Shown here: positions 1 to 30,889 of the stretch, piece after piece | Layout: every line of letters starts with the position of its first letter | Position numbering within the stretch: position 1 is the stretch's first letter | Source: an uncultured Alphaproteobacteria bacterium | Lineage (GTDB): Bacteria; Pseudomonadota; Alphaproteobacteria; Rs-D84 | DNA: 32,000 bases | Direction of reading: 5' to 3' | NCBI GenBank assembly: GCA_963931495.1 | Contig: OZ007020.1 | Span: 30,001 to 62,000, forward strand | Notes under the pieces: model-generated | Told to the model about the DNA's origin: nothing | The model's database searches: none | Seen by the model: only the letters and a program-made list of their open reading frames with translations | Position numbers and translations under genes: made by a program

Positions 1-1695
1 GCCATGCCGGGTTACAACTTGTCAGGGGTGCAGAGTGGATGGATTCGCCCCAGCGGTGGCGCATATTATTTCCATCCGTTTTCTGATACAGAGTGCAAAA
101 ATCCAACCGGAACGTATAATCCAGACAACGGTATTATCACAGATATAAATAATCCGGCACAAAAAATTGGTACAGATGCCGAACATATCGGATATACAAC
201 AATAACAAATGGAACATTACCACAACTGTCTAATCCGGCAACAACACGCAATGAAAATAAAGCGGTACAATTAACCGCGGCGGAAATAAACGCACTGCCA
301 CAATTATCGTCAGCGGGTCAAATGAAGCATGTTGAATTAAAGGCCGCACCCAAAGCACAAGTTATTGTCGGAACCAGTGGTTCGGCAACATATTCGTCAG
401 ACCCATATGACAGAAGTTTTGTTCTGCGCCAGTATAAACCAATTCCTGCAACAATTGTGTCCGAGGTTCGCGCCGACCCAACAATTTATGAATCTGGTCA
501 TGCACTGCCGGTCCAGGCAACTGTTGACAGAAATGTTTATTCTGATGATGGACGCACGATTGTAATTCCAACTGGCACACTAATGTTGGGATATGTTAAT
601 GGTGAATTGCCGGGACCGTATAAGTCAATTGGACGCATGAATATTAATTGGTATCAATTTATATTGCCAAATGGGGTTGAATTCAATTTCACCGGCGACC
701 CAAACCAGGATCCTTTTTCGGCGGATTCCCAGGGTCGTGTCGGTGTTCCTGGACACGGCAGTACAGATTATGTTGAACAATTGGTTATGCCAATGCTGAC
801 CGCGATTGTGCCAGCGGCGGTTAATATGATTGCACCAATATCAGACGCATTTATAAACCAAATTGATCTGGATAATAATACCGTTGTGCAAAGCGGAACA
901 ATTCGTTCATCCGAATTGGCCAAAAATGAAATTATTACCGCATGGAACCAGGTTGCACAAAAGTTACTGGTTGATGCCATGGATAATACCATTCCGCCAT
1001 TTTCTATTGCGGCCGGTACACGTATAACCGTATATTCACCGACTGATTTGGTTATAACATGTGGTCACGACGCAGATAAAATCTGTTCTGTTGAAAATCT
1101 GTACCAGGAGACACAATTGCGTCCTAATTGGCGCCACAATGTCACCGTTAATCCGAATGATGGTTCATGGACAGGCCAAGTACGTTCATTTAATCTGGAA
1201 CAATATTGCACAACGGACAGTGATGGCATTTGGGATATTAAGCCTGGCGTAGAAGGTGAAATTATAAATTCTGGATACGATTACAGAACTGTGTTGGCGT
1301 ATTGTCAATCATTGAATTACCAGGCGATTAATAATGCACGCCAAGATGCGGTATACCAAAATCAACAACAGCAATTCCAGAACAGTTACAGTGTTCAATC
1401 ATCGGGGGCATCAAATACAATCAGTGGCCTGAGTGGTATAACCGGCAGCCAGGCGTATAACGAAGATATCTTGGGGTTGACATATGATGACAGTGGCGCG
1501 ATTCAAAATCCATTCGTTGAATCAGACGCATTGACAGATGTCACAGAAACCACAGAAACAGTCATAACATGCGATGGCGGGGTGGCACCTGATGAATACG
1601 GTTGCTGTCCGGGTGAAATATATACCGATATGGGCGAACAAGGATTCAATTGCTGTCCGGAAACAGGGGGCGATTGTTTCCCGCCGATATTGTAA
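1..1695 (+). CDS. Type IV secretion VirB10/TrbI-family protein, 5'-truncated by the window edge, with a non-canonical ~210-aa Cys-rich C-terminal extension
   Basis: The frame is open to position 1, with no stop upstream of the ATG at 4. Residues ~140-352 match the VirB10/TrbI core as I remember it. NVYSDDGRTIVIPTGTLMLGYV compares with A. tumefaciens VirB10 DVYSFDGRNVLIPKGSRLIGQY. IPPFSIAAGTRITVYSPTDLVI compares with IPPTIHVDQGTRITVFVRRDLDF. RMNINWYQFILPNGVEF and GRVGVPGHGSTDY also fit. The TAA at 1693-1695 is followed by a hairpin terminator. Confidence 0.85.
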   Translation, partial: AMPGYNLSGVQSGWIRPSGGAYYFHPFSDTECKNPTGTYNPDNGIITDINNPAQKIGTDAEHIGYTTITNGTLPQLSNPATTRNENKAVQLTAAEINALPQLSSAGQMKHVELKAAPKAQVIVGTSGSATYSSDPYDRSFVLRQYKPIPATIVSEVRADPTIYESGHALPVQATVDRNVYSDDGRTIVIPTGTLMLGYVNGELPGPYKSIGRMNINWYQFILPNGVEFNFTGDPNQDPFSADSQGRVGVPGHGSTDYVEQLVMPMLTAIVPAAVNMIAPISDAFINQIDLDNNTVVQSGTIRSSELAKNEIITAWNQVAQKLLVDAMDNTIPPFSIAAGTRITVYSPTDLVITCGHDADKICSVENLYQETQLRPNWRHNVTVNPNDGSWTGQVRSFNLEQYCTTDSDGIWDIKPGVEGEIINSGYDYRTVLAYCQSLNYQAINNARQDAVYQNQQQQFQNSYSVQSSGASNTISGLSGITGSQAYNEDILGLTYDDSGAIQNPFVESDALTDVTETTETVITCDGGVAPDEYGCCPGEIYTDMGEQGFNCCPETGGDCFPPIL

Positions 1696-1699
1696 ATAA

Positions 1700-1724
1700 C
1701 GGCCTGCCATTGGCGGGCTGTTTT
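1700..1724 (+). terminator. Rho-independent terminator candidate after the VirB10-like gene
   Basis: CGGCCTGCC (1700-1708) pairs with GGCGGGCTG (1712-1720) over 9 bp including two G-U pairs. The loop is 3 nt and a TTTT run follows. Confidence 0.5.
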
Positions 1725-1733
1725 AATAACAGA

Positions 1734-1762
1734 TTGAAAAACCAAGGGAGTTATGCTATAAT
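1734..1762 (+). promoter_or_regulatory. sigma70-type promoter candidate (TTGAAA-17 nt-TATAAT)
   Basis: TTGAAA lies at 1734-1739 and TATAAT at 1757-1762, with exactly 17 nt between them. The predicted TSS is near 1769. Confidence 0.5.
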
Positions 1763-1794
1763 GCAAGTCTGAAAATATCTGATATTATATTGCG

Positions 1795-1818
1795 CGCGCG
1801 ATTTGCGCGTTTTTTTTA
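1795..1818 (+). terminator. GC hairpin plus T8 run (second terminator or attenuator)
   Basis: CGCGC (1795-1799) pairs with GCGCG (1805-1809). TTTTTTTT follows at 1810-1817. The element sits about 30-50 nt downstream of the predicted TSS of the 1734-1762 promoter. Confidence 0.45.
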
Positions 1819-1991
1819 TTTTATACACATAATAATCGCACCAATTACGATTCGTGCGCATGTGTATAAATCGCATAAACGAATCGGTTTTCCGATTCAC
1901 AAATCAACCAACGGTTGTACTGTTTTACATAATACAACCAATGGTATATACATCCAATCATAACCAAACAACATAAAAGGAGAAAAAATAC

Positions 1992-2339
1992 ATGACATCG
2001 CAAAATACACAAATCATATATCCATCAGAAAAGTTTCAAAATGCGGAACAACTGTGGTTCTGGTTTTTGTATTCTAAATCGGTTCAGAATGGATTCAGTC
2101 CCACAAAAGGACATGAAACACATCGCATATGCGAATTATTGGATGTAGAAATATTGATAACAAAATTATACTTGTCGGGCCGATTGTCCGATGAACAATT
2201 ATCAGTCATGAAAAAATACGGCGATCGGCGGCGTGCACCACATCAATATGTATGGTCTGAAAATCGTGCCGCCGATGTTTGGCGCGATGCAATGGTCATA
2301 TTGGGCGACGCCGCAATTAAACGCGGATGGATTGAATAA
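1992..2339 (+). CDS. Hypothetical protein, 115 aa (no family recognised; possible HTH-like C-terminal half)
   Basis: The ATG at 1992 is preceded by AAGGAG (1977-1982) at 9-nt spacing. The TAA at 2337-2339 is followed immediately by a strong hairpin terminator. The segment RLSDEQLSVMKKYG is only loosely HTH-like. Confidence 0.6.
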   Translation: MTSQNTQIIYPSEKFQNAEQLWFWFLYSKSVQNGFSPTKGHETHRICELLDVEILITKLYLSGRLSDEQLSVMKKYGDRRRAPHQYVWSENRAADVWRDAMVILGDAAIKRGWIE

Positions 2340-2363
2340 AAACGGGGCTTTGGCCCCGTTTTT
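2338..2363 (+). terminator. Rho-independent terminator
   Basis: AACGGGGC (2341-2348) pairs with GCCCCGTT (2353-2360) around a TTTG loop. A T-run follows to 2363 and an A-run lies upstream. Confidence 0.7.
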
Positions 2364-2382
2364 GAAACACAAGGAATATCAC

Positions 2383-2751
2383 ATGATTATAATTGGTTTT
2401 GCAACAAACACATCAAAGTTATTACCACGCATTTTTTGTCGCGCGCCACGGCATTGTGCACCAATCGTTCAGATTACTGATAACCGGTACATAATGTACC
2501 AATTTATCCGACGTAATTATATTGCGCAAATATCATTAAGCAGACGGGCAATAAAATTATTACACGCGTATGGATGGCGATTTATTTCATTAAAACACGA
2601 TATTCCACGCAACCTTATGCATCAGGCACGCTGTGCACGTTCATGTGTTGAATTATGCTGTATCGCCATTGGTCATACATATTCACCGATTATGACACCA
2701 CATGCATTATACAAACGATTAAAAAAATCCGCCATAATCGGCGGATTTTAA
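2383..2751 (+). CDS. Hypothetical protein, 122 aa (tentative permuted papain-fold / NlpC-P60-like amidase)
   Basis: The ATG at 2383 has AAGGAA (2371-2376) upstream. I chose this internal start of tracked ORF 2233..2751 because the upstream part overlaps the 1992 gene and its terminator. The pattern is IIIGFATNTSKLLPRIFCRAPRHCAPIV followed by RSCVELC ~80 aa later, a His-then-Cys order. No own promoter was found, and the gene sits 20 nt after a terminator. Confidence 0.5.
   Translation: MIIIGFATNTSKLLPRIFCRAPRHCAPIVQITDNRYIMYQFIRRNYIAQISLSRRAIKLLHAYGWRFISLKHDIPRNLMHQARCARSCVELCCIAIGHTYSPIMTPHALYKRLKKSAIIGGF
2721..2749. terminator. Bidirectional terminator shared by convergent genes
   Basis: ATCCGCC (2727-2733) pairs with GGCGGAT (2740-2746) around a 6-nt loop. 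A7 lies on one side and T4 on the other, so each strand reads a hairpin followed by a T-run. It overlaps the last codons of the 2383 ORF and lies just past the stop of the 2760 gene. Confidence 0.65.
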
Positions 2752-2759
2752 TGTTTTCA

Positions 2760-4949
2760 TTACTGCTTGGTCCAGTCACGGATTTCAGACGCCCAATTTT
2801 CCAGCAAGCAGTTTTCACGTATCACCGCAGAATTACACTGGGTCAAATCATCACCTGTGCATTCCGTACCCCCATCCCCACCGGTCACGCCGTTCAATAT
2901 TTCATTTAATGTTACAACATTGCGGCATGTATTCTTGCTGACATCCTGGGTATTATTGCATGTTTTGCTGTCTGTCAGACTGATAACCTTGGATATCTGG
3001 GAATCAGATGGATTGCAAACCATTTGTTCATAGCAATGCGGAACATTTGCAACCTGGGCGCAATATGTTTTGATACGCGCATCGGTCCAACCTGATTCTG
3101 ATTTTGCCTGGGTTTCATAGCAATCATACAATTCAGACAAACATTCTGTAAAATTGCTGATCGCATCATCATAATCAGATTTCATTGTTTCTTGTTCTTC
3201 TTGATAGAATTCCAGACGTTTCTGTTGCAATGCCTGTTGCGCCGCGGCCTTTTGATAACCAATATTTTGTGCCGTGGTGGTCAATTGTTCACCATACGCG
3301 TCACAGTCCGCATTTGCATCCAATGCATATTTCTGCATAATGCTGCGCCGTGCATCAGCAACCGGTCCACGCAGGTCGGCATACGGGTCACCCGATGCAG
3401 ATGAATATCCAAAACATGTCGCCGAATTGGATGACGTATATCCAGTATCTGGGGTAATAAAGTTCAACGAATAATCACCCGTGTTGGATACAGATATATA
3501 ACTGTTGTAATTGTACGGACATTGTGAACGACCGTTTCCGCACTTGGTGCCCCCAGATGGCGGGGTACCGCATGCTTCATATATACCATTAAAGCAAGAA
3601 TCCAAAACGCGGTTACATACATTATTATGGGCATATTCAAATAATTCGTACCCCCATGTTTCAGCCAATGAATCTTTCAAAGATTCTGTATCACCAATCG
3701 CATTACCAATCCCCGCCAAATTACCAACAACATCGGTCAGGTTTTCAAACGCTTCCAAGATATTATCATTATCTTGATCCAATATTGTCAGTGTTTTTTC
3801 CTTGGCATCGGCCCATGACTGTAATGATGCCAAAATATCACTGCTGCCACCGGAAATATTACTGATATCAAAGCCAAACGAATTACCATCTGATGTACAA
3901 TAACTGGGTTTCGTACATGGGCTCATCCCACCGCCATTGCTGTCATAAAAGCCGTGGTTATAGCACCATTCAACCGCCTCATCCGAACTTTCACCATATT
4001 GGCTGGTAATTTCTTGCCATGAAACACAGTTCATCACTTTTTCTGCATCAGTCAATTGGAATGCGGCACTGATATCTTTGCCCTTGGTTGCGATTAACAG
4101 TGCCAGTTCACCAGAAACCTTGATAAGTTCTTCGTTTGCCTGTTCCAGTTTTGCTTCGGCATCGGCAAATGCACGAACGCGTCCTGCGCATGCACAACGA
4201 CGCTGGGCCGCGTTACGGGCCGTGCAGATTTCGTCCATACATGCATAATATGATTCCATACAGTTATTGTACGCTTCGGCGGAAATCAATCCGGTTGAAG
4301 AATCAATGATGTTTGAATAATTCCCAGTGTACAATCTGTTTTGCAGGTATGTATACGTATTGGAATTTGTTGCATAACTGCCACGGATGGCACTGCCCTG
4401 TAATGATATGCGCGATGGATTTGTTGTCGTACGCGAACGCACACTGCGCGTCGGATTATTTGCCGCCACGCGCGATGCCGTTGTTGTTGTCGTACGCGAC
4501 ACGACATTACGTGACGCCCCCGACGCAGATGGACGCGCCGTTGTTGTCGTATTTCCGCGTGATGTCGTCATTGTCGGACGACCAGACGTCGCCATACGCG
4601 ATGATGCCGTCGCCGTCCCAGCCGCCACTGTTGGTGTGGTGGTCGCACGTGATACAACACTGCGACTGGCGGTGGTGCCGCGCGGTGATGTGACCGTTGT
4701 CGTCGCGTTTCCACGCGAAACAATATTTGCAGAATTCCCACGCGATGTTGCCGGACGCGATGTGCGTGATGTGTTGCCGGCACGCGTTGCCTGGGGGGTG
4801 ATAACATTATTCTGGGCCACCGGTGCAATCGGATCCGCCAACACCGAACGCATAGATAAAAATGTAGAGCAAACAAAAAATGCGCCCGCCAGTAAAAATA
4901 CAGTCCCCATCGCATTTTTGAATGAATCTGCAAAATTACGCTTTTTCAT
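2760..4949 (-). CDS. Large secreted cysteine-rich protein, 729 aa: Sec signal peptide, Ser/Thr/Arg-rich low-complexity region, ~520-aa 26-Cys domain with coiled-coil segments
   Basis: The start was moved to the ATG at 4949 (MKKRNFADSFKNAMGTVFLLAGAFFVCSTFLSMRSVLA/DP), which has AGGGAG 6 nt upstream. The N-terminus has basic-hydrophobic-AxA signal peptide features. The ORF is long and uninterrupted in AT-leaning DNA. I recognise no family. Confidence 0.8.
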   Translation of the reverse strand: MKKRNFADSFKNAMGTVFLLAGAFFVCSTFLSMRSVLADPIAPVAQNNVITPQATRAGNTSRTSRPATSRGNSANIVSRGNATTTVTSPRGTTASRSVVSRATTTPTVAAGTATASSRMATSGRPTMTTSRGNTTTTARPSASGASRNVVSRTTTTTASRVAANNPTRSVRSRTTTNPSRISLQGSAIRGSYATNSNTYTYLQNRLYTGNYSNIIDSSTGLISAEAYNNCMESYYACMDEICTARNAAQRRCACAGRVRAFADAEAKLEQANEELIKVSGELALLIATKGKDISAAFQLTDAEKVMNCVSWQEITSQYGESSDEAVEWCYNHGFYDSNGGGMSPCTKPSYCTSDGNSFGFDISNISGGSSDILASLQSWADAKEKTLTILDQDNDNILEAFENLTDVVGNLAGIGNAIGDTESLKDSLAETWGYELFEYAHNNVCNRVLDSCFNGIYEACGTPPSGGTKCGNGRSQCPYNYNSYISVSNTGDYSLNFITPDTGYTSSNSATCFGYSSASGDPYADLRGPVADARRSIMQKYALDANADCDAYGEQLTTTAQNIGYQKAAAQQALQQKRLEFYQEEQETMKSDYDDAISNFTECLSELYDCYETQAKSESGWTDARIKTYCAQVANVPHCYEQMVCNPSDSQISKVISLTDSKTCNNTQDVSKNTCRNVVTLNEILNGVTGGDGGTECTGDDLTQCNSAVIRENCLLENWASEIRDWTKQ
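4380..4787 (-). repeat. Degenerate tandem repeats encoding the S/T/R-rich region; locally GC-rich
   Basis: The encoded sequence contains recurring units, e.g. SRGNATTTVTSPRGTTASRSVVSRATTT versus SRGNTTTTARPSASGASRNVVSRTTTT. The DNA is visibly richer in CG/GC than its flanks. This composition suppresses stop codons and produces four spurious overlapping ORFs in other frames. Confidence 0.7.
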
Positions 4950-5034
4950 TAAACACTCCCTGTGTTCCGGGAAAGACCGGAATCCCGCCAATTTCGCACG
5001 CAATGGGCACGCCATTACGTCATTATTTTATATA

Positions 5035-5063
5035 ATTATATCATTTTTGCGAATGTCTGTAAA
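5035..5063 (-). promoter_or_regulatory. sigma70-type promoter candidate for the Cys-rich gene (TTTACA-17-TATAAT on the minus strand)
   Basis: On the minus strand, TTTACA is the complement of 5058-5063 and TATAAT the complement of 5035-5040, with a 17-nt spacer. The predicted ~80-nt leader contains the hairpin TTCCGG/CCGGAA (4965-4982). Confidence 0.35.
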
Positions 5064-5129
5064 TAAGAAAACCCGCAACAAACAATATGAATTTATGAAT
5101 CTTTATCAGTTTTATTTTGGCAAAATACA

Positions 5130-5138
5130 TGATATAAT
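5130..5138 (+). promoter_or_regulatory. Extended -10 element (TGATATAAT) just upstream of the PagL-like gene
   Basis: TGnTATAAT lies at 5130-5138. Only 8 nt separate it from the ATG at 5147, and no clear Shine-Dalgarno is present. Confidence 0.35.
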
Positions 5139-5146
5139 GTCGGGCG

Positions 5147-5713
5147 ATGAAGAAATCTGTATTATCTGTTTTTCTGGTGTTATCCATGACCGCCGGCACC
5201 GCACTGGCGGATTCAGACAATCCCATGTTTGCCCCAAATGCACAAAATGCAATCGCGTTGTACGGTGCCCAGAGCACAGGGCCAGGAACACTGTTCAAAC
5301 TGGTTGACCCATTCTTGTGGGAATTTGAACCAATGACAATGGCAATGTTGCAATACAGTCAACCGATGACGTTTTTCCGACTGCCGGCGCGAATGAATTT
5401 TAACTTGGTTCAAAATGTCGCGTATGGCGATGATCATGAACTGGCGTTCTTTGCAATTGGCGTGTCGTGGGATGTTGTGCTGGTGCACTGGCGTGGATTG
5501 TATATTGGGTTGGGTGTTGGACCATATATGCGTGATTCACGCGACGATTATGTAAACAGTCGTTTGGTATTTGGCGAACGGTTCTTTATTGGCAAAAATA
5601 TTGGTGATGCATGGCGGATTGAACTGTTTACCCAACATTTTTCTAATGGCGATTTTACTGATATAAATCGCGGATTTAACTTTTTCGGATTGGCCGTCAG
5701 TTATAGTTTTTAG
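5147..5713 (+). CDS. Acyloxyacyl hydrolase / PagL-like lipid A deacylase family outer-membrane beta-barrel
   Basis: The signal peptide reads MKKSVLSVFLVLSMTAGTALA/DS. The size is ~170 aa mature, with alternating beta-strand patterns. HFSNG near the C-terminus matches the PagL-family His-x-Ser catalytic motif. The terminal SYSF gives an aromatic OMP C-terminus. Confidence 0.72.
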   Translation: MKKSVLSVFLVLSMTAGTALADSDNPMFAPNAQNAIALYGAQSTGPGTLFKLVDPFLWEFEPMTMAMLQYSQPMTFFRLPARMNFNLVQNVAYGDDHELAFFAIGVSWDVVLVHWRGLYIGLGVGPYMRDSRDDYVNSRLVFGERFFIGKNIGDAWRIELFTQHFSNGDFTDINRGFNFFGLAVSYSF

Positions 5714-5726
5714 TTTATTGTGGCAA

Positions 5727-5757
5727 CAAAAAAAACGCCACAATGGGCGTTTTTTTA
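5727..5757. terminator. Bidirectional terminator between the PagL-like gene and yidC
   Basis: AACGCC (5734-5739) pairs with GGCGTT (5746-5751). An A-run lies upstream and a T-run downstream, so the hairpin reads as a terminator on both strands. Confidence 0.65.
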
Positions 5758-7332
5758 TTTGTTTATTCGCTTGATATAATACATCTGGGCAATGCCGAAT
5801 ATATTTGACACCGTCCAGTACAGCACCAATCCCGCCGGCATCCATGCGAACATTACTGTAAATATCAGTGGCATCCATTTCATTACTTTCTGTGTTTGTG
5901 CCGTAACGTCATTCTTGTCAATATTGCCTGATGGCGTCTGTAAATACTGTTGCAGCCACATTGTCGCGCCCATCAGTATCGGCAATATAAAGTATGGATC
6001 CATTGCCGCCAAATCAGAAATCCACAAGAAATGTGCACTGCGCATCTGTACAGATATTAATAACGCCTTGTACAATGCAAAGAAAATTGGAATTTGTATC
6101 AGCATCGGCAAACATCCAGACATCGGGGATGTCTTGTGTGTCTGGTACAGGCGTAACATTTCCATTTGTAATCGCGCCTTGTCATTGGCGTATAATTTTT
6201 GTATACGTGCCATTTCTGGTTGCATTTTCTGCATTGCCATCATTGAAACATATGATTTGCGCGTCAGTGGCCACATCGCCAAACGCATCAACAGTGTTAA
6301 AACAATTATCGCCAAACCATAATTTTTAACCACGGAATTTAATATGTTCAGCAACCATAATATCGGTTGAACAAAAAACCAAAACCACCCATAATCCACA
6401 GTTTCATCAATGCCCGGAATCTGTTGATTTGCAACGTCCAATATCTTGTTATCACGTGGTCCAACATACAGGTGCGCCGTCAATGTCGCCGCGTCGCCGG
6501 ACGCAATTTGAACCCCAGACGCGGTCACATCTGATTGGAACATTTCGCCAAATGCGCGAACCCGCATTGTTTGGTCAACACTGTCCAGTGCAATCACTGT
6601 TTCCCAATACTGGTCAACGAAACCAACAAAACCGTTCGTTGTTGAATACGCAAATGATTTTTTGGCAACACGTGACCAATCTTCATGTTCTAAATCAGAA
6701 TTCACAAATGCCACCGCCCCAGTATAAACCCCGGCCGATGACGACATGTCATTCGCACGCACGATATTCGCATATGGCGCAACCGAAATATCATTACCAG
6801 AATTGTTTTCAATCGTATCTGTGACGGTTATAACATAGCCATCTGTGGTAATGCTTCGTGTAAATTGCACATTATCAGAATTTTTCCATGTATACACGCC
6901 ATTACTGTAATTCCACACTGTTTCCGGTGTTGGTGCGGTTGTGCCACCGGCCGTCATACCGATTTCTGCGAATGCGCCATCCGACCCCAACAAAGTAACC
7001 GGTTCTGTGGAATCACGCTGGGCCGCATCAGCGGCATAATTTAACAATTCTATATCAGATATGCGTAATCCTTGGACATTGGCGGTCAGATTTTCTGATG
7101 CAATTTCATGCACCGGCACAGATGATAAATCAACCATTGGTGCGTATTCTGTATCTGGGCCGGTCGTTTTCGTTTCTGATGGTGCCATCCACCATGACAG
7201 CAACCACCACGATGCTAAAAATAATATAAACCACCATAAGATACCGCCCCAGCGCGACTTTGGGGCCGCCGCATCGCGCGCCGCATTCCACTGACGGAAT
7301 CCAGACAGATTATTATTCATATACTTTACCAT
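5755..7332 (-). CDS. yidC: Membrane protein insertase YidC
   Basis: The architecture is 525 aa: an N-terminal TM segment, a large periplasmic domain, and the conserved C-terminal 5-TM core (GCLPMLIQIPIFFALY, LPILMGATMW). The ATG at 7330-7332 directly abuts the lspA stop. Confidence 0.95.
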   Translation of the reverse strand: MVKYMNNNLSGFRQWNAARDAAAPKSRWGGILWWFILFLASWWLLSWWMAPSETKTTGPDTEYAPMVDLSSVPVHEIASENLTANVQGLRISDIELLNYAADAAQRDSTEPVTLLGSDGAFAEIGMTAGGTTAPTPETVWNYSNGVYTWKNSDNVQFTRSITTDGYVITVTDTIENNSGNDISVAPYANIVRANDMSSSAGVYTGAVAFVNSDLEHEDWSRVAKKSFAYSTTNGFVGFVDQYWETVIALDSVDQTMRVRAFGEMFQSDVTASGVQIASGDAATLTAHLYVGPRDNKILDVANQQIPGIDETVDYGWFWFFVQPILWLLNILNSVVKNYGLAIIVLTLLMRLAMWPLTRKSYVSMMAMQKMQPEMARIQKLYANDKARLQMEMLRLYQTHKTSPMSGCLPMLIQIPIFFALYKALLISVQMRSAHFLWISDLAAMDPYFILPILMGATMWLQQYLQTPSGNIDKNDVTAQTQKVMKWMPLIFTVMFAWMPAGLVLYWTVSNIFGIAQMYYIKRINK

Positions 7333-14384: not shown

Positions 14385-15960
14385 ATTTCCGTACATGCCG
14401 GGCCGCCGCCGCGATGAACGCGTTAAACATTGGATGGCCGATGTATGGACTGGATTGAAATTCTGGATGAAATTGCCCCGCAATAAAGAATGGATGATTT
14501 TTTAATTCAACCATCTCTGGCAGACGGCCATCCGGACTGCGTCCAGATATTATCATGCCTGCTGCGGCGAATTTATCCGCGTACGATATATCCATTTCAT
14601 AACGATGACGATGGCGTTCTGATATTTCTGTTTTGCCGTATATTTCATTGGCCAATGTGCCCGGTGTGATAACACATGGGTACGCCCCCAAACGCAATGT
14701 CCCCCCCAGATTTTCAGAATCATGATTCGGCATAATATTTATAACAGGGGTACAATTTTTTGAAAATTCTGTTGAATCTGCATCACTGATTCCTAAAACA
14801 TTTCGTGCAAATTCAATGACCGCCACCTGCATCCCCAGACATATTCCCATATACGGCACCATATTTTCACGCGCATATCCCGCCGCCGCAATTTTACCAG
14901 AAACACCACGTGTACCAAATCCACCTGGGACCAAAATACCATCAACATCAGCCGCATCATCAGGGGTAAATGTTTCGGCATTTATTTTCTTTAATTCAAC
15001 ATGTACATTGTTTTGAATACCCGCATGAAACAACGCTTCGTTCAAAGACTTGTACGCATCTGGGACATCAAAATACTTTCCAACAATCCCGATTGTAACG
15101 CGCGGCAAATCCGCATCCAGATAATGTTCTATGCGATTAAATTTGTCCATATTGCCGGCGGCATTTGGTAAATCAAAGTAATCCGCAATTATATCAAACA
15201 CATGCTGGTCATCATATGCCAGTGGGATTTTATATATATTATCAACGTCAATACCACTGATTACATTTTTTGCCGGCAAATTACAGAACATGCCGATTTT
15301 TGCGCGTTCGTCGGCGGTTAACATACGTGGCGTGCGCACAATCAGCATATCTGCCTGGATGCCGTTTTCCAATAATTCACGCACCGACATCTGGGTTGGT
15401 TTTGTCTTTAATTCGCCACTTTTTTCCAGATATGGTGCCAATGTTAAATGCACAAACATAACGTTTTTACGTCCAACGTCATTTGCAAACTGGCGCACAG
15501 ATTCCAAGAATATTTTGCCTTCTATATCACCAACAGTGCCACCAATTTCACACACAACAAAATCTGTATTTGTTGGTGCCGCAATGTATTCTTTGATTTT
15601 GTTACTGACATGCGGAATCATCTGAACCGTCGCCCCCAGATAATCACCACGACGTTCGGCATTCAGCACATCCCAATATATGCGCCCCCCTGATACGGAA
15701 TCATTTCTGGATAACTGTACACCCAAAAATCGTTCATAATATCCTAAATCCAAATCTGTTTCAAAGCCGTCATTCGTAACATATACTTCACCATGCTGGA
15801 ACGGCGACATGGTGCCAGGATCAATATTCAGGTATGGATCAAACTTTCGCGCATGAACAGAATACCCGCGCGATTGAAGAAGGGCGCCACAACTTGCCGC
15901 CGCGACGCCCTTGCCCAAACTGGAAACAACACCACCGGTTATAAAAATATATTTTGCCAT
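14383..15960 (-). CDS. pyrG: CTP synthase
   Basis: The start was set at the ATG at 15960 (MAKYIFITGGVVSSLGKG), with AAGGGGG upstream. The glutamine amidotransferase domain carries GICLGMQ and the HRHRYE motif. Confidence 0.97.
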   Translation of the reverse strand: MAKYIFITGGVVSSLGKGVAAASCGALLQSRGYSVHARKFDPYLNIDPGTMSPFQHGEVYVTNDGFETDLDLGYYERFLGVQLSRNDSVSGGRIYWDVLNAERRGDYLGATVQMIPHVSNKIKEYIAAPTNTDFVVCEIGGTVGDIEGKIFLESVRQFANDVGRKNVMFVHLTLAPYLEKSGELKTKPTQMSVRELLENGIQADMLIVRTPRMLTADERAKIGMFCNLPAKNVISGIDVDNIYKIPLAYDDQHVFDIIADYFDLPNAAGNMDKFNRIEHYLDADLPRVTIGIVGKYFDVPDAYKSLNEALFHAGIQNNVHVELKKINAETFTPDDAADVDGILVPGGFGTRGVSGKIAAAGYARENMVPYMGICLGMQVAVIEFARNVLGISDADSTEFSKNCTPVINIMPNHDSENLGGTLRLGAYPCVITPGTLANEIYGKTEISERHRHRYEMDISYADKFAAAGMIISGRSPDGRLPEMVELKNHPFFIAGQFHPEFQSSPYIGHPMFNAFIAAAARHVRK

Positions 15961-16039
15961 AAGAAATGCCCCCTTATGGACTGTCATGATACGAAATTTT
16001 TCATTGCGACGCAAACAAATAAATTCCTATACTTTTAGC

Positions 16040-17983
16040 ATGAAAGATTTTTTGGAAAATCAATCAGATAATTTGTTTCTGTGGGTACCGTTTCTGATGG
16101 CGTTTGGTGGTGGAATGTATTTTAACATTCCATGGAATCCAAATATAATCATAATTATACTGGGGATTGTTACAGCAATCATTTTACTGTTTTGTTTGCA
16201 TAAGCGTGGGGTTCGTGCATTTGCACTGTTCTTGTTCGGCTTTTGTTATTCCGCAATATTTACCCAGATAATTAATACACCACAAATTCCGCGCGATTTA
16301 CACAATCTGGACGTATGTGGCACCGTGGAACATATTGATTATACAAATAATAAATCCAGAATTTATATTAAACTGGACGCATCTGATATTCATGCCGGCG
16401 ATGGCACGGCAATCGTGCGCGTATCAGCATCGTCAAGCATTCCACCGCCAAATGTTGGCGATAAAATTCGGGCGAAAATCGGCCTGTTCCGCCCAAATGG
16501 CCCAGACGGACCCGAAACATTTGACTATGCACGTTGGGCGTATTTTAATGGGTTAAGTGCAAATGGGTATATGAATGATTACGACGTTATCGCACACGCA
16601 TCTGGTCACGGAATTGCAACACTGCGAAACAGTTTACATAAATCAGCAAATTCCTTTCTGGCCGATACGTTGGTTCTGGGTTATAAAAACGCCGTTCCAA
16701 AATCAGATTCATCAACATGGACAGCAACTGGCGTTGGACACGTTTGGTCAATCAGTGGATTTCACATCACATTGGTGTCCGCATGGCTGTTTGCAATATT
16801 TTATTTACTATTTCGTGCAATTGCACCAATAACACGCCGAATACCGGCGCGCATTCCGGCATTAATTTGTGCGTGGATTGGGTTAATGTTTTATCTGTTC
16901 TTGTCAGGGTGCGATGTTGCAACAGTACGCGCGTTCTTGATGGCAACACTGGTATTTATGGCATTTATATTTGGACGGAACGCGATATCTGTGCGCAACG
17001 TATGTGTCGCGTTTTGCATAATATTTCTGATAAATCCACACTATGTTATGCAACCAGGTTTCCAATTATCATTTGCGGCGATATTCGGACTGGTTTGGTT
17101 ATGGAATGACGTGCGTCCCAAAATGCCGAACAACAAAATATTAAAAGTAATTTATACAGCAATACTGACATCCGTTGTCGCCACAATATTTACCACGCCA
17201 TTTGTTATCGCGCACTTTTACAGTATGCCAATTTATGGATTAATTGGAAATCTGGTTCTGTTACCCGTATTTTCCGTGGCGATTATGCCAATGGTGATGC
17301 TGGGCATTTTTACTGCACCGCTGTTTGGTTGGTCGTTGCCACTGGATGTGGCAGAAAAAATTTATCAATTCACACTTGGGATTGCAACAAAAATTTCGTC
17401 TATGCCGATGGCAACAATAACAATGCCGCATATTACAAACGTCGCGCTGGGGACAATAATAATCGGTTTTCTGTGTCTGATGTTTATTCGGCCAATACGA
17501 ATAAAAATTAACTGGATTTTATGCGCAGTATTTTTTGCAATCGGAATTACAATCATATGCACAACCCAGCCACCAGTATTCTATGTCACACATGATCATG
17601 AACTGGCGGCATTTGTTGGTCCAGATAATAAACTGGAATTCACCAAGTCACGCGCATCAAATCATTACTTTACATTTGATACATGGAAACACATAAACGG
17701 CGAAGATGCCGGAACGAAAAACATACGCCGTGCCCCAGTTGATGGTGTCTGGGTGTACAAAACGCAAAAATTTACATTAGCGTATATTCAGAAATTTGTA
17801 CCATTGATGCGCAATATAGAAAAATTATGCAATGATGATGATATTGATTATATTGTTTCGTTTTTTGATGTTCAATCAAAACAGTGTGACCACAAAATTC
17901 TGCGCGGCGGATTTGTAATTTATCCAAACGGAAAAATTAAATACCTGGTTAATTCGCGCCCGTGGCATAATCCGCCCGAATAA
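16040..17983 (+). CDS. comEC: ComEC/Rec2-family DNA internalisation competence protein
   Basis: The start was set at the ATG at 16040 (MKDFLENQ) because the tracked N-terminal extension overlaps pyrG. The protein is polytopic with the Competence-domain region (GVGHVWSISGFHITLV). No HxHxDH metallo-beta-lactamase motif is evident in the C-terminus. Confidence 0.88.
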   Translation: MKDFLENQSDNLFLWVPFLMAFGGGMYFNIPWNPNIIIIILGIVTAIILLFCLHKRGVRAFALFLFGFCYSAIFTQIINTPQIPRDLHNLDVCGTVEHIDYTNNKSRIYIKLDASDIHAGDGTAIVRVSASSSIPPPNVGDKIRAKIGLFRPNGPDGPETFDYARWAYFNGLSANGYMNDYDVIAHASGHGIATLRNSLHKSANSFLADTLVLGYKNAVPKSDSSTWTATGVGHVWSISGFHITLVSAWLFAIFYLLFRAIAPITRRIPARIPALICAWIGLMFYLFLSGCDVATVRAFLMATLVFMAFIFGRNAISVRNVCVAFCIIFLINPHYVMQPGFQLSFAAIFGLVWLWNDVRPKMPNNKILKVIYTAILTSVVATIFTTPFVIAHFYSMPIYGLIGNLVLLPVFSVAIMPMVMLGIFTAPLFGWSLPLDVAEKIYQFTLGIATKISSMPMATITMPHITNVALGTIIIGFLCLMFIRPIRIKINWILCAVFFAIGITIICTTQPPVFYVTHDHELAAFVGPDNKLEFTKSRASNHYFTFDTWKHINGEDAGTKNIRRAPVDGVWVYKTQKFTLAYIQKFVPLMRNIEKLCNDDDIDYIVSFFDVQSKQCDHKILRGGFVIYPNGKIKYLVNSRPWHNPPE

Positions 17984-24903: not shown

Positions 24904-25656
24904 CTATATTGCACGCACTGTGCGACAAAATACAACACCATAAACCGCCACCGCGCCGGCCGCCATCAGCACACGTCGCAATTCTGAAAACGTTGCACCG
25001 GTTGTCATAACATCATCCACCAACAATATTCTGCGGCCACGAATTTTATCTGGATTTTTAACCGTGAACACACCATGAATGTTTTCTGCACGTTGTGCGG
25101 CGTTCTTGTGTCCCATATCTGGACGATATGCACGATGTACACTGGACAAATCCAAAGGCACACCAAACGCACGTGCGATGGGACGTGCCAACAGTACGGC
25201 TTGGTTATAACCACGATGAAACAAACGACGATATGCCAATGGTACAGGCAAAACAACATCTGGGGATATCGTCACATCACGCATTGCCCAAATCATCGCG
25301 CGCGACATGAACAATGAATATTTTATACGTCCCGCATGCTTGAACGGCAACATTGCCGCACGTGATACATCATCATAAACACATGCAGAACGAATTAAAT
25401 CCAGCCCACATTCCCCAGCCGCACAGCGCGGACACAATGGCCGGGGTCCCAAATCCAGATTCGCCGGAAATGGATACCCACACTTGACACATTTTGGATT
25501 ACATATCCAATTAAATTCTGTCCAACATTCGGCGCATAATTCACCGTGCACAGAAACACGTGTCCCGCACAACGGGCACGATGCAGGGAACAAAAAGTTC
25601 ATTAAAAAACGCGTCGCATTATTAATAAAACGACGCGCAGCATTTTTATTCGGCAT
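24904..25656 (-). CDS. comF: ComF-family protein (phosphoribosyltransferase-type competence protein)
   Basis: The N-terminus carries Cys clusters (CPLCG...CAECW...CVKCG). The C-terminal PRTase motif is ILLVDDVMTTGATF. The first ATG (25654-25656) overlaps the upstream gene's TAA as TAATG; the track start at 25662 is a TTG. Confidence 0.88.
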   Translation of the reverse strand: MPNKNAARRFINNATRFLMNFLFPASCPLCGTRVSVHGELCAECWTEFNWICNPKCVKCGYPFPANLDLGPRPLCPRCAAGECGLDLIRSACVYDDVSRAAMLPFKHAGRIKYSLFMSRAMIWAMRDVTISPDVVLPVPLAYRRLFHRGYNQAVLLARPIARAFGVPLDLSSVHRAYRPDMGHKNAAQRAENIHGVFTVKNPDKIRGRRILLVDDVMTTGATFSELRRVLMAAGAVAVYGVVFCRTVRAI

Positions 25657-27068
25657 TACCAAGACATGCTTCTGTATGTTTTTTTGCTGACCGTGTCACC
25701 GAATATATCGCGCTGTTGCTGGGTCAATGTTTCATATTGGTCTAATGAAATCATACGCAACACTAATCCCGAATCATCACGTTGTGACAACACCGGTAAA
25801 ATGCGTTGTTCAGAAATTCCATTATCACGTAAAACTTGTTCCACAATGGCCAATCGGCGCGCCGCCAATTTACGATCATCGGCATCACGCGTAACACTTT
25901 CTGGGATTGATACTTGAACCGCACGGGTTGGATTACTTAACACAATACCCGCATATTCTGTCAGCAAATTATAGTTATCACGTGACAATGCAGAATCTTC
26001 GTTACGGAATTTTATTTTGATTTCCAGTGGTCGTATGCCGCCCGCTTCGGATAAATCACGGGCCGATGTAAATCCGGCTGCGTTTGCGGTTACATCACTG
26101 GCGACATCAAATCTGTCATCAATCTGGAATGCAGACAGATGTTTATTTTCAGACAAAAATGTTTTTCTGAATGCCTTGCGCAGTTCACTGGGACTCATCT
26201 TCGTCATGTCATCACGCACAGATGCGATACGTGGCGATTCCGACTTTTTAACCGCACGGACAACCACGTCATCAACCATTGGCACAACAACACGCGATAA
26301 TGTTACATCTGAATCATTGTTATCCTTGCTTGCAATACGCGTATCCGCATTAATATCACGAACAACATTTTGTTTTTTTACGCTTGGCCGCGCAACCACA
26401 GAACGCGTTTCATGGGCCACAGCGCGCGGCGCAACAGGTTCCAGATTCTGTTGTTCCATAACACTGGCATCGGCACGACGTTGCAGTTCATTCAATCGCG
26501 CAATCTGGGCGTCAATTTCACTTAATGGTTGTGACACCGCACGCGCAACGTTTGTATCATATGTGTCATATGTTGGAACACGGTTGGCAATTTGGCGTTC
26601 ATTATCATTACGTGCAATTGTTGTTGTGGCACGTGGCGCACCAATCAAACTTTCTTCGGGCAGTATGTCATCCGAACGAATAACAGAAAATTCATCCGGA
26701 CTGGGCAGGCGCAATGGCGCGTCTGTATATCCCACAGATGTATCAGAATGCGCCCACAAATCAGAACTGGGGCGATGTGGCGATAAAACATCCGCCGCCG
26801 CGACAATTGGCCCGCCGTGCGTAACATTCACATCAGGCCGTATTTCCGTGTGCGATTTACCCAATATAACATCCGTATCTGTTACATCGTTATTTAACGC
26901 GATATCTTGCCCCCCAGATTGAGATTCATTTATTTTCACAATGGGTTCACCAAACGCCGCACGTGCAGAAACACCACCCGCCGCCAAATTCACAACAGGC
27001 AACCGCGCATCTGCAAACGCCGGAAACACAAGCAATACAGACAATACAGAGACGGCAAAATGACGCAT
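25656..27068 (-). CDS. Secreted hypothetical protein, 470 aa, with a weak OmpA/MotB-like C-terminal domain
   Basis: The start was set at the ATG at 27068 (MRHFAVSVLSVLLVFPAFADA signal peptide), with GGAAGGAAAGGAAA upstream. The C-terminal ~100 aa (IKIKFRNEDSALSRDNYNLLTEYAGIVL...RKLAARRLAIVEQVLRDNGISEQRI) follow the beta-alpha-beta-alpha order of OmpA_C-like domains, but the canonical PG-binding residues are unclear. Confidence 0.7.
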   Translation of the reverse strand: MRHFAVSVLSVLLVFPAFADARLPVVNLAAGGVSARAAFGEPIVKINESQSGGQDIALNNDVTDTDVILGKSHTEIRPDVNVTHGGPIVAAADVLSPHRPSSDLWAHSDTSVGYTDAPLRLPSPDEFSVIRSDDILPEESLIGAPRATTTIARNDNERQIANRVPTYDTYDTNVARAVSQPLSEIDAQIARLNELQRRADASVMEQQNLEPVAPRAVAHETRSVVARPSVKKQNVVRDINADTRIASKDNNDSDVTLSRVVVPMVDDVVVRAVKKSESPRIASVRDDMTKMSPSELRKAFRKTFLSENKHLSAFQIDDRFDVASDVTANAAGFTSARDLSEAGGIRPLEIKIKFRNEDSALSRDNYNLLTEYAGIVLSNPTRAVQVSIPESVTRDADDRKLAARRLAIVEQVLRDNGISEQRILPVLSQRDDSGLVLRMISLDQYETLTQQQRDIFGDTVSKKTYRSMSW

Positions 27069-27140
27069 TTTCCTTTCCTTCCTGTATTTATCATAGAACA
27101 AATGACGAATCGCAGGCAAGCAGAAAATACATCATCCGGA

Positions 27141-28187
27141 TTATTTTGTTATTTCATCACAAATTATTTGTACGGCATTATTTGGAACCAATGATTTTTT
27201 TGCCATTTTTTCCAGTCGCAATGGATTATCAAACAGTTCTGTTAATGTTGTCGCCAACCATTTTGGGGTAAATTTTTCTTGGGGCACAGAAAAGCCGCCC
27301 CCCAGTTGTGCAAAGCATGCTGCGTTTGCCGCCTGGTCTGGATTTATATTTAACGGAACCAGAATTGCTGGTCGCCCAATTGTTTCAATTTCAACAACCG
27401 TACTGGCCCCGGCACGACCAATAATTAAATCAGATGCACATATGGCACCCGCCATATCGTGTACAAACGACAAAACATTCGCATGAATTTTATTATCTGC
27501 GTATAATTTCTGTAATCGTGCGACGTTTTCCGGACGCGTTTGGTGCATTACAAAAATACGCTTGTTTTTCATTTGCAAAATCGCCGCCGGGACAACGTCG
27601 TCCAATATTTTTGCCCCCAGTGAACCACCCGTGACAAACAGTCTGGATTCTTTTGGAATTGGACATGCCGCGGCATCAATAAATTCACGACGAACCGGCA
27701 ACCCAGTATATACCACGCGCGCAGATGTATTGTTTGGTATACCACTGACCGAATGAAAACTGGTCATCAATGTACGCACCCAGCGCATAGTAAATTTATT
27801 TGCCCGACCAATTGCCGCATTTTGTTCATGTAAAAATGTTGGTATATGCCATACATGCGCCGCAAAAACCGGTGCCACAGACGCATATCCACCGAATGCA
27901 ACCACACGCGCCGGACGCGAAAATAAAAATCGCACAGTTAACCAAATCGCAGATACACCGATTTTGAACAACGCGATAATTTGTTGTATTTTGCTTTTTG
28001 CGCCAACACCCGCCGCCCACACAGTTGTAATTCGTGCACCCGCCGGCGCACCATCGCGCACCATTTTTTTTACACGGCCGTCCGTTGAAATTATAACAGA
28101 ATGTCCACGTGCCACCAATTCATCTGCAACACTTAACGCCGGATAAACGTGCCCACCTGTACCACCTGTTGCAATCCATATTTTCAT
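27141..28187 (-). CDS. murG: UDP-N-acetylglucosamine--N-acetylmuramyl-(pentapeptide) pyrophosphoryl-undecaprenol GlcNAc transferase
   Basis: The start was set at the ATG at 28187 (MKIWIATGGTGGHVYPALSVADEL). The GT28 N- and C-terminal domains are present (GRAGASTVVEI). Confidence 0.95.
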   Translation of the reverse strand: MKIWIATGGTGGHVYPALSVADELVARGHSVIISTDGRVKKMVRDGAPAGARITTVWAAGVGAKSKIQQIIALFKIGVSAIWLTVRFLFSRPARVVAFGGYASVAPVFAAHVWHIPTFLHEQNAAIGRANKFTMRWVRTLMTSFHSVSGIPNNTSARVVYTGLPVRREFIDAAACPIPKESRLFVTGGSLGAKILDDVVPAAILQMKNKRIFVMHQTRPENVARLQKLYADNKIHANVLSFVHDMAGAICASDLIIGRAGASTVVEIETIGRPAILVPLNINPDQAANAACFAQLGGGFSVPQEKFTPKWLATTLTELFDNPLRLEKMAKKSLVPNNAVQIICDEITK

Positions 28188-28253
28188 GATTTTGCACCCC
28201 TGCTTTGATATCATAATAATTATATCACTGGAATTTAGTATTGCAATAACGCG

Positions 28254-29393
28254 CTATTTCCACTTGTCTTCACGAACCAATGCCAAAATCATTCCAAACA
28301 GCGCGCAAAACGCCAACAACGATGTACCACCATATGAAATAAATGGTAATGTCATTCCCTTGGGCGGGAATAAATTCAATGTTGACATCAGATTAATACA
28401 TACCTGGGCACCAAACAGCGCAGCCGTTCCCCCAGCCGCATATGCAACAAACCGATCACGCGCATTTGATGCGTTTACAATTAAACGCTTTAATACCAAC
28501 AACAGCAAAACAATTATTACACATGCAACCAGCGCCCCCCAATCTTCGGCAATCGCCGCAAATATAAAATCCGTATGCGCATCAGGCAAAGATTGCTTTA
28601 CAAACGCTTCATCACCACTGCCCAGCAAGCCACCATGCTGAATTGCCTGGACAGATTGCGTAACCTGGTACGTGTCACCAGTGCCGGTAAAGAATGCCAT
28701 AAAACGGTTATGCACATGCGACATGGTAAAAAATGCAAATACACCAATCACACCAACCAAGGCCACCAGCCCCAGAACAACAGACATCGGCAATCCTGCA
28801 ACAAACAACATCGCGCACAGGACCGTACAATACAATACCGCCGTTCCTAAATCAGGGTGATTTAATATAATCAAAACAGCCGGAATAAATATCGCCAGAT
28901 ATGTCCACCAACTGAACAATTTTGGGCGCCACGCTGTTTTGGTTAAAAACATATTTTCGCCGTACAATTCACGCATCTTGGCCAAAAACCATGCCGTCAG
29001 AATTATAAACCCGGGCTTCATCGCATCAGATGGCATAACATTAAAAAACATTAAATCAACAAATCGCGCAGAACCCTTGATTTCATGCGGTGCAATCAGT
29101 GTAACCAATAACAGCACCAGGCAAAACGCAACATCCAACAACGACATCCCCAGAACCATTTTGCGATTAAATGTACTGAATATGACCAATGTCGCAATAC
29201 CACCGATGTAAAAAGGAATTGCCTTTAATATAAAATAATTCCATGGCTGGCCAATACGTTCAGCGGCCACCGAACCAGCAGACACACCAAAAATAACCCC
29301 GATAAATATTAATATCAGCACATACAGCAACAAACGTCTGTCTGTTTCAAAATACCAGTTGGTCAGTTTACTTTCTTCGGTTCGTTTCAGCAT
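28254..29393 (-). CDS. ftsW: Peptidoglycan glycosyltransferase FtsW (SEDS family)
   Basis: The protein is a 10-TM SEDS family member (DFIFAAIAEDWG, PFISYGGTSLL). Its position between mraY and murG supports FtsW rather than RodA. Confidence 0.9.
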   Translation of the reverse strand: MLKRTEESKLTNWYFETDRRLLLYVLILIFIGVIFGVSAGSVAAERIGQPWNYFILKAIPFYIGGIATLVIFSTFNRKMVLGMSLLDVAFCLVLLLVTLIAPHEIKGSARFVDLMFFNVMPSDAMKPGFIILTAWFLAKMRELYGENMFLTKTAWRPKLFSWWTYLAIFIPAVLIILNHPDLGTAVLYCTVLCAMLFVAGLPMSVVLGLVALVGVIGVFAFFTMSHVHNRFMAFFTGTGDTYQVTQSVQAIQHGGLLGSGDEAFVKQSLPDAHTDFIFAAIAEDWGALVACVIIVLLLLVLKRLIVNASNARDRFVAYAAGGTAALFGAQVCINLMSTLNLFPPKGMTLPFISYGGTSLLAFCALFGMILALVREDKWK

Positions 29394-29418
29394 TGCCAGA
29401 TATCACACCATCGGTCCA

Positions 29419-30507: not shown

Positions 30508-30568
30508 TCTCAATTCCTTTGATTTAATTATACTGACATTCTATCACAGAAATCACGCAAAACAAAAA

Positions 30569-30862
30569 CTATTTAACAGTACAATATATCGGCATGCCAT
30601 CATCAAAAAACAGCATCCAATCCGAACCCTTGTTCCACAACGTCACATCTGTGCCATTTAATGTACCAACGTAACGCACCCCGGATGCGGATATCGCCAA
30701 ATCCAGTGTCATCTTGGTCCCATCCAGATTAACATCCAAATGTTCACCATCCCCAGACAAATTTATACCAACGTCATGACTGTCACACTGCAAATTAAAT
30801 TCATACATATCACATGCAGATACAACGAACATCGCACACAGACAAACCAGAATATTACGCAT
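30569..30862 (-). CDS. mliC: MliC-family lipoprotein (membrane-bound inhibitor of C-type lysozyme)
   Basis: The lipobox reads VVSAC. LQCD, ISASGVRY and LWNKGSDW followed by a terminal Cys parallel E. coli MliC/YdhA (YQCD, ISASGARY, FWSKGDEA). The length is 97 aa. Confidence 0.85.
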   Translation of the reverse strand: MRNILVCLCAMFVVSACDMYEFNLQCDSHDVGINLSGDGEHLDVNLDGTKMTLDLAISASGVRYVGTLNGTDVTLWNKGSDWMLFFDDGMPIYCTVK

Positions 30863-30889
30863 ATTTCCCCCCCATATTTGATTCCAGAA

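Follow-up and report, generated by a model that had tools for sequence, protein, structure and literature searches.

The window analysed here is a 32,000-nt stretch of contig OZ007020.1 (GCA_963931495.1, positions 30,001-62,000) from an uncultured alphaproteobacterium, and the block under study, positions 1-5015, carries the end of a virB10 gene of a type IV secretion system (T4SS), two small orphan genes (orf115 and orf122), and a convergent gene for a 729-aa cysteine-rich exported protein. Comparison with related genomes indicates that this block probably consists of two unrelated units of independent history, brought together by rearrangement in one species. The first unit would be the persistent block virB8-virB9-virB10-orf115-orf122. 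The second would pair the 729-aa protein with a PagL-like protein of the outer membrane, would usually reside at ppdK / rplU-rpmA in other species, and would have moved into the orf122/yidC junction in this one. Exact matches place the genes on metagenomic contigs of up to 357 kb. Close homologs come from Candidatus Enterousia and from metagenome-assembled genomes (MAGs) labelled “Alphaproteobacteria bacterium” and “Rickettsiales bacterium”, recovered from animal and human guts, and the host is a reduced-genome gut alphaproteobacterium of the uncultured order Rs-D84, near Candidatus Enterousia. Rs-D84 genomes are reduced, below ~1 Mb, and a partner-dependent lifestyle has been proposed for these bacteria, which, with Enterousia, are widespread in human and animal guts and are taken to live at the expense of other cells (PMC12306168).

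The separation of the two units is seen from both sides. Relatives of the Cys-rich protein are encoded by 317 species-representative genomes, and the counts given here for its neighbourhood are from the best 80 of the 317 loci, read over ±10 kb. virB8, virB9, virB10, orf115 and orf122 were found within 10 kb of the ortholog in 0/80, and among related virB10-orf115 loci, the 34 whose sequence continues for over 4 kb downstream all lack the Cys-rich protein (0/34). An earlier sequence-only reading of the window had placed the protein in a T4SS-associated module and had proposed synteny as the test; by that test the placement fails. What adjoins the ortholog in other species is a PagL gene (60/80 loci, 50 divergent and 10 co-directional), with ppdK, rplU and rpmA nearby in 49, 47 and 45 of the 80, respectively. 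By these comparisons, the adjacency of the Cys-rich gene and orf122 is specific to this species.

For the first unit, synteny was examined in sister species and 80 metagenomic loci, using for each count the loci with enough sequence. virB10 lies immediately 5′ of orf115 in all 40 loci, and orf122 lies 3′ of orf115 in all 57, as the sequence-only reading had anticipated for the orphans. The order secE, virB8-virB9-virB10-orf115-orf122, yidC is constant in related loci (virB10-orf115-orf122 also occurs in L097-L100), while the distance between secE and virB8 varies, and breaks in the neighbourhood always fall outside the five genes. Two relatives carry insertions between orf122 and yidC: ppiD-like, tpiA and grpE genes in one (L152, 6850-9600), and bamB-like, sigma-70-family (rpoH-like), rgpF-like, NERD and lpxD genes in the other (L159, 8100-16080). 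The orf122/yidC junction is an apparent point of recurrent rearrangement. That the orphans are associated with virB10 beyond background synteny is suggestive and only a lead.

The boundary between the two units bears marks of this history. A hairpin at 2724..2749 (10 pairs, -15.6 kcal/mol) is preceded by an A-run and followed by a T-run, and could therefore act in both directions, as a predicted terminator common to orf122 (+) and the Cys-rich gene (-). The shared bidirectional terminator proposed earlier does correspond to this hairpin, which is situated not between the genes but within the final 9 codons of orf122. The C-terminus of orf122 here, KKSAIIGGF, is an extension absent from its orthologs. 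Because the orf122 C-terminus is altered and overlaps the terminator of the Cys-rich gene, the boundary fits a junction formed by rearrangement. On the other side, the convergent genes pagL and yidC are separated by a hairpin (5724..5761; inverted repeat I6, 16-nt arms 88% complementary), which would mark the right-hand junction of the relocated pair. No direct repeats flank the pagL/Cys pair, nothing similar to the VirB10 tail described below was found among 72,556 plasmids, and the Cys-rich domain also had no plasmid match; on these grounds, a mobile-element origin was rejected.

The virB10 reading frame occupies 1..1695 (+) as a 3′ part of 564 codons and stays open past the left edge of the window, whose first letters, gcc atg, are in frame with it, with no intervening stop; sister contigs give a full length of 820 aa. 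The fragment matches Pfam TrbI (PF03743) at 57.6 bits (cut-off 35; E = 2e-15) over residues 142-349 and profile positions 3-186 of 188, which places the TrbI beta-barrel domain at ~427-1050 (+). In searches against sequences of solved structures, the barrel gave weak matches to ComB10 (E = 8e-4) and CagY (E = 9e-4), and against the NCBIfam equivalog NF038091 the protein scored 53.8-55.1 bits, so that the cut-off of 220 was not reached. At full length, the order is a membrane anchor (hydrophobic residues 20-40), an additional (immunoglobulin (Ig)-like) N-terminal region that matches “choice-of-anchor D” weakly, a Pro-rich linker with PEPEP repeats, the TrbI barrel and a tail. Judged from these profiles, this VirB10 is a divergent member of its family with extra domains.

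The tail is an acidic C-terminal extension of ~210 aa (~1051-1692, +), with about 214 residues following TrbI. It holds 10 of the 11 Cys of the fragment and ends in C-x10-CC-x15-CC-x6-C-FPP, which accounts for 6 Cys. All 42 full-length relatives (42-67% overall identity) keep it, most with 10 Cys, and its end, C-x10-CC-GE-x-YTDMG-x-QGFNCCP-x3-GGDCFPP, is nearly invariant among them. The VirB10/TrbI homologue with a Cys-rich tail recognised in the sequence-only reading is thus borne out by both the TrbI score and the 42/42 relatives, and the alignments identify it as a genuine lineage-specific variant. The tail would form five disulfides and might decorate the periplasmic or outer-membrane face of the secretion core.

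Directly upstream of virB10 are genes for VirB8 (PF04335) and CagX/VirB9 (PF03524), and the gene order before the window is rpoB<-rplL<-rplJ<-rplA<-rplK<-nusG<-secE, tRNA-Trp, virB8->virB9->virB10. The T4SS genes read within ±10 kb of the locus are virB8, virB9 and virB10 alone. This islet, between secE/nusG and yidC, is not a full T4SS locus, and it is not a remnant because it is intact and conserved. The T4SS locus that had been expected to extend upstream therefore comes down to three genes, intact ones. They would encode the envelope-spanning core of a T4SS whose other genes are located elsewhere. VirB9 itself, at 507 aa (L002 5696-7219), much exceeds the 248 positions of the VirB9 profile, and only the part aligned to residues 55-294 matches; as in VirB10, additions specific to the lineage are probable. 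A 65-nt direct repeat lies between secE and virB8 in two copies that are 94% identical and 181 nt apart (L002 4400-4464 and 4581-4645), the second overlapping the 3′ end of tRNA-Trp (L002 4628-4701, -); this repeat beside the islet looks like an att-site-type duplication.

Both orphans are genes and not chance open reading frames (ORFs), since they are conserved in many relatives. orf115 (1992..2339, +) encodes a clade-restricted, very conserved small protein, predicted to be cytoplasmic and to form four helices (AlphaFold2 (AF2) model, pLDDT 74.7), and orf122 (2383..2751, +), the ATG-started part of a 172-aa ORF, encodes a clade-restricted, very basic protein (isoelectric point (pI) 10.45). 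Neither had a match in Pfam, NCBIfam, PHROGs or PADLOC, including when alignments of their relatives were searched, and toxin-antitoxin (TA) and defence families gave no match, so the earlier statement that the two proteins of 115 and 122 aa could not be assigned holds. None of the 744 homologs of orf115 carries a Pfam domain; those examined are 64-77% identical, apart from two that are near-identical. At the same loci, orf115 (64-77%) is more conserved than VirB8 (32-69%), VirB10 (42-67%) and orf122 (31-54%). No PDB match to orf115 was found by fold (Foldseek) or by sequence and profile: Foldseek against PDB returned generic helical and coiled-coil noise for the models of orf115 and of the Cys-rich domain (best E 0.87 and 1.2).

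Alignment of 70 distinct orf122 orthologs, of which one of 119 aa is 53% identical at the amino-acid level with the frame unbroken, leaves F6, H24, W65, C88, V89, T105, P106 and L109 invariant. orf122 had no family match and no PDB sequence or profile match. The invariant His24 and Cys88 suggested a permuted NlpC/P60 (LRAT/YiiX-like) thiol hydrolase, with a His-then-Cys catalytic pair, but this lead found no support: aligned by hhalign to human PLA2G16, orf122 reached a probability of 0.15% across 12 columns. A terminator-like hairpin lies 3′ of orf115 (2337..2366, +; -17.7 kcal/mol stem, then TTTTT). In many relatives, the gap between orf115 and orf122 is ~15-35 nt; because we judge this too short for such a hairpin, the two genes may be co-transcribed there. 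orf115 could be a small protein that binds DNA or has a regulatory role and controls its own expression, and orf122 its basic partner, possibly a His/Cys enzyme.

The intergenic region 1696-1991 is heavily structured, as had been noted, with two hairpins and conserved palindromes. The first hairpin, T1 (~1698-1727, +; 11-bp GC-rich stem, -18.1 kcal/mol, then TTTT), is a predicted intrinsic terminator that would end the virB8-10 transcript, and most related loci have a hairpin at this position, differing in sequence. The second, T2 (1792-1818, +; GCGCGC stem plus T8, -10.0 kcal/mol), is terminator-like and occurs in the “long-form” intergenic regions of relatives. Between them (window 1735-1790, in a 60-nt stretch), a Shine-Dalgarno-like sequence is followed by a mini-ORF of 2-3 codons, here ML*/MQV* and elsewhere MNTS* in ~12 loci and MT* in ~7. 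It is present in ~20 of 66 loci in all (its position is shared by L103, L104, L105, L114-L116, L125, L129, L131, L137, L139 and others) and absent from short-form regions. With ~20/66 loci and varying peptides, it was too weak to be called a leader peptide.

Downstream of T2, a multi-species alignment delimits a conserved regulatory region of orf115 (1848..1952, +). It holds the heptamer CGATTCG (1848-1854), the palindrome CGAATCG-N6-CGATTCA (1880-1899; the last position is R across species, CGATTCR) and the palindrome CAACC-AAC-GGTTG (1905-1917), which abuts a putative promoter assigned by eye (-35 TTTACA at 1924-1929, -10 TATACA at 1947-1952, spacing 17); the Shine-Dalgarno sequence AAGGAG follows at 1977-1982. 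All three CGAWTCR-type sites contain GANTC, the methylation site of CcrM in alphaproteobacteria. At least two CGAWTCR sites are present in 59/66 intergenic regions and at least three GANTC in 53/66. Across the window, GANTC is under-represented (78 observed vs ~119 expected), and of the 3 occurrences of CGANTCG in the 32 kb, 2 fall within the region upstream of orf115. The composite palindrome was found at 47 loci, once per locus and exclusively upstream of orf115; it is absent from the 80 Cys-protein loci (1.4 Mb) and from the region upstream of virB8. An operator common to orf115 and the virB8 or Cys-protein promoters was rejected, the palindromes being upstream of orf115 only. Because terminators follow virB10 and the conserved palindromes are confined to the orf115 upstream region, orf115 appears to be a separately and tightly regulated gene, plausibly an autoregulated one, transcribed from its own promoter bearing the GANTC palindromes.

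These features also feed the best-surviving of the rival explanations, that orf115-orf122 is a self-contained cassette unrelated to the T4SS, TA-like or a regulator-enzyme pair, that has simply stayed beside virB10. A small helical DNA-binding protein would regulate itself through palindromic operators and be followed by a small basic protein. The promoter and palindromes of the pair stand one or two terminators away from virB10, and the operator is absent upstream of virB8. Such a cassette would also suit the protein sizes (115 and 122 aa), the closeness of the two genes and the basic character of orf122. However, the cassette finds no counterpart among TA or defence families; orf115 is vertically inherited at a fixed locus and more conserved than VirB8 and VirB10, unlike mobile TA modules; and rearrangements affect the flanks of the five-gene block but leave the block itself whole. 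We regard this explanation as possible but doubtful, and a T4SS role for orf115 and orf122 is possible.

The gene of the second unit that lies within the block, 2760..4949 (-), encodes the 729-aa protein. A 751-aa ORF reaching to 5015 is an in-frame upstream extension of it; the start is most likely 4949, as predicted from an AGGGAG Shine-Dalgarno sequence, the gene callers and ortholog N-termini, which agree. The protein divides into a Sec signal peptide (aa 1-38, 4836-4949, cleavage ...SVLA/DP), a basic, disordered, T/S/A/R-rich linker with 11-aa repeats (aa 39-190, 4380-4835; pI 12.0) and an acidic, mostly helical Cys-rich domain (aa 191-729, 2763-4379; pI 4.3), all on the minus strand. Of its 27 Cys, one (Cys27) lies in the signal peptide and 26 are in the mature protein. 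The description of a Sec-exported protein of 729 aa with 26 Cys is accurate for the mature form, with a total of 27 and the start moved from 5015 to 4949. In 78 orthologs the Sec signal is conserved, as are 24 of the 27 Cys (in ≥86% of them, in the aa 191-729 domain), and conservation is 40% in the linker vs 72% in the Cys-rich domain. Cys27 itself (nt 4869-4871) is conserved in 78/78. Because the FFV before it is not a canonical lipobox, we read the signal as type I, for signal peptidase I, with lipidation as an alternative. An AF2 model of the domain is mostly helical, with one helix of ~90 residues (pLDDT 78.6).

No match to the protein was found in Pfam, NCBIfam, PHROGs, PADLOC, PDB sequences or PDB folds. 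Exhaustive HMMER searches recovered 37 ortholog-level representatives and ~80 larger proteins (~700-1100 aa), which share the N-terminal motif C-x6-CMD-x2-C-x9-RRCxC and many other Cys positions; none has a Pfam domain, and the family is confined to Rs-D84 and to gut MAGs labelled “Rickettsiales bacterium”. In 53/80 genomes the ortholog has a paralog, p791, a few kb away, and a distant “Rickettsiales bacterium” MAG encodes four tandem paralogs of 364, 746, 760 and 610 aa (L181 7817-16449), all of which combine a signal peptide with a low-complexity linker and the motif C-x6-CMD-x2-C. Near these four, a 1851-aa protein has a faint chlamydial Pmp match. By homology, then, the 729-aa protein is a member of an unannotated lineage-specific multigene family of exported proteins. 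It would be exported via Sec and signal peptidase I and consist of a basic flexible linker and a Cys-stapled acidic helical head, and it may be an envelope or surface protein that acts independently of the T4SS in adhesion or as a scaffold in a partner-dependent lifestyle.

Its divergent neighbour, 5147..5713 (+), encodes the PagL-like outer-membrane beta-barrel of the lipid A 3-O-deacylase family. It passes the Pfam cut-off for PF09411 (51.5 bits, cut-off 23; 1.5e-13), although the match is partial, covering profile positions 41-136, the C-terminal two-thirds only. The translation shows a signal peptide and, towards its C-terminus, the sequence HFSNG, whose His and Ser we take to be the PagL catalytic residues; deacylase activity is predicted only. 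Lipid A is probably made in this lineage, because lpxD is present in a relative. The two genes share a 197-bp divergent region, in which a consensus scan (11/12) predicts that the Cys-rich gene has a promoter-like site, TTTACA-17-TATAAT with TG (5025..5063, -). We know of no described counterpart to the pairing of PagL with a Cys-rich exported protein.

Two further readings join the 729-aa protein functionally to secretion, and both are weaker than the cassette explanation. In the first, which we consider improbable, Rs-D84 has a remodelled T4SS, with a five-disulfide VirB10 knot, an enlarged VirB9, and inseparable orf115 and orf122, orf115 being a GANTC methylation-sensitive regulator of the machine; the ~0.9-Mb partner-dependent bacteria would use it with the Cys-rich family to attach to and exploit cells. 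In the second, the 729-aa protein and its paralogs would be two-step T4SS substrates encoded away from their machine, in the manner of pertussis toxin, which is exported by Sec, folded with disulfides in the periplasm and then released through the VirB channel of the Ptl system. The Sec signal and many conserved Cys, the absence of an autotransporter or other recognisable secretion domain from the protein, and the intact, conserved T4SS core genes in the same genomes all suit a two-step route. Yet T4SS synteny is lacking, no similarity to known T4SS substrates was found and nothing points to the route positively, which leaves it very improbable.

The least probable of all is the original proposal that the VirB10 tail, the orphans and the 26-Cys protein form one disulfide-stabilised T4SS surface module (a cap, adhesin or appendage), since the adjacency of the genes in every contig of this species on which they occur, the conserved, even-numbered extracytoplasmic Cys sets of both large proteins and the constant company of the orphans and virB10 are set against 0/80 and 0/34 loci with linkage, no shared Cys module or operator, and a junction with an altered orf122 C-terminus and a terminator within the ORF. 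As to the Cys module, a hidden Markov model (HMM) of the 48-residue VirB10 knot found nothing significant among 379 proteins, and a resemblance to the knot seen by eye in P0300 is anecdotal only. The suggestion that the VirB10 tail and the 26-Cys protein act as a joint structure is likewise unsupported.

Several points weigh against the reading of two independent units joined by rearrangement, or against parts of it. The linkage of virB10 and orf115 may be simple inheritance, because synteny within the clade extends over the entire secE...yidC neighbourhood. Likewise, the link between PagL and the Cys-rich protein may be at best genus-level synteny, because relatives at 38-43% identity no longer show the pairing. 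Duplication in place of relocation is possible, as the ppdK-rplU site is known from other species only. Rs-D84 bacteria reportedly have no respiratory chains (PMC12306168), and since the oxidation of 13 Cys pairs is puzzling in such cells, the Cys residues could bind metals instead of forming 13 disulfides. In other species, a tandem of three polytopic membrane proteins (432, 480 and ≥398 aa; L013 18620-22214, also in L014 and L015) is encoded at a distance of 6-10 kb from the Cys-protein ortholog; they matched nothing in Pfam or PDB and may be very divergent VirB6-like proteins. Finally, the mechanistic parts of the reading are inferred for orf115, orf122 and the Cys-rich family, because all searches for known relatives were negative.

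Outside the block, the window is housekeeping by Pfam, in agreement with the description of positions 1-5015 as its only non-housekeeping part. Downstream of the PagL-family gene is yidC, and the remainder includes lspA, kefB-like, rsmA, recR, dacC, pyk, pyrG, comEC, truA, fmt, def, rmuC, a leuS-type synthetase, comF-like, murG, ftsW, mraY and ftsI; Rfam searches over 1..6000 gave no match above the gathering score. On the minus strand, 24904-31948 holds an abbreviated division and cell-wall cluster, in which genes for an ftsI-type penicillin-binding protein, mraY, ftsW and murG are consecutive, without intervening murE, murF, murD or murC. The expected place of murC is taken by an ORF of 487 aa that matches no Pfam family (25656..27119), next to the comF-like gene (24904-25662, -), whose product has a double zinc ribbon and a phosphoribosyltransferase domain. 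This gene and comEC (15911-17983, +; Competence and DUF4131 domains) are both kept despite a genome below ~1 Mb, and their retention hints at a capacity for DNA uptake.

Set beside known systems, the islet most resembles the rvh system of Rickettsiales, a P-type T4SS whose genes lie in scattered islets that include virB8-virB9-virB10-virB11-virD4. Both are found in reduced alphaproteobacterial genomes, with a virB8-virB9-virB10 islet amid housekeeping genes and TrbI, CagX and VirB8 Pfam domains. In contrast to rvh, virB10 is followed here by orf115 and orf122 and not by virB11 and virD4, the 820-aa VirB10 has an N-terminal Ig-like region and a Cys tail, VirB9 reaches 507 aa, and the NCBIfam scores are far under the cut-offs. 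Helicobacter CagY and ComB10 provide the best solved-structure matches to the barrel, and CagY is a precedent for a VirB10 with large extra regions; however, similarity is confined to the barrel, and here a short Cys-knotted extension sits at the C-terminus, whereas that of CagY is a mid-protein repeat region. For the 729-aa protein, the nearest analogy is with chlamydial OmcB and OmcA, the Cys-rich envelope proteins of obligate intracellular bacteria: it too is exported and Cys-rich in a host- or partner-dependent bacterium, and a disulfide-stabilised envelope role is conceivable. Unlike OmcB and OmcA, it has no Pfam match, chlamydial families included, is predicted to be helical and not beta-rich, and occurs only in Rs-D84 and “Rickettsiales bacterium” genomes.

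A literature search returned no description of a T4SS or of the Cys-rich family in Rs-D84, and what is new here is a split P-type T4SS with an unusual VirB10 beside unannotated lineage-specific families. Because the adjacency arose by rearrangement in one species, the Cys-rich family should not be annotated as T4SS-associated on the strength of it. Should the orphans or the Cys-rich family nonetheless prove to serve the T4SS of these reduced-genome gut bacteria, the interest of the locus would be greater. As they stand, the T4SS core with its VirB10 tail, orf115 and orf122, and the expanded family of exported Cys-rich proteins are candidates for the interaction machinery of Rs-D84.

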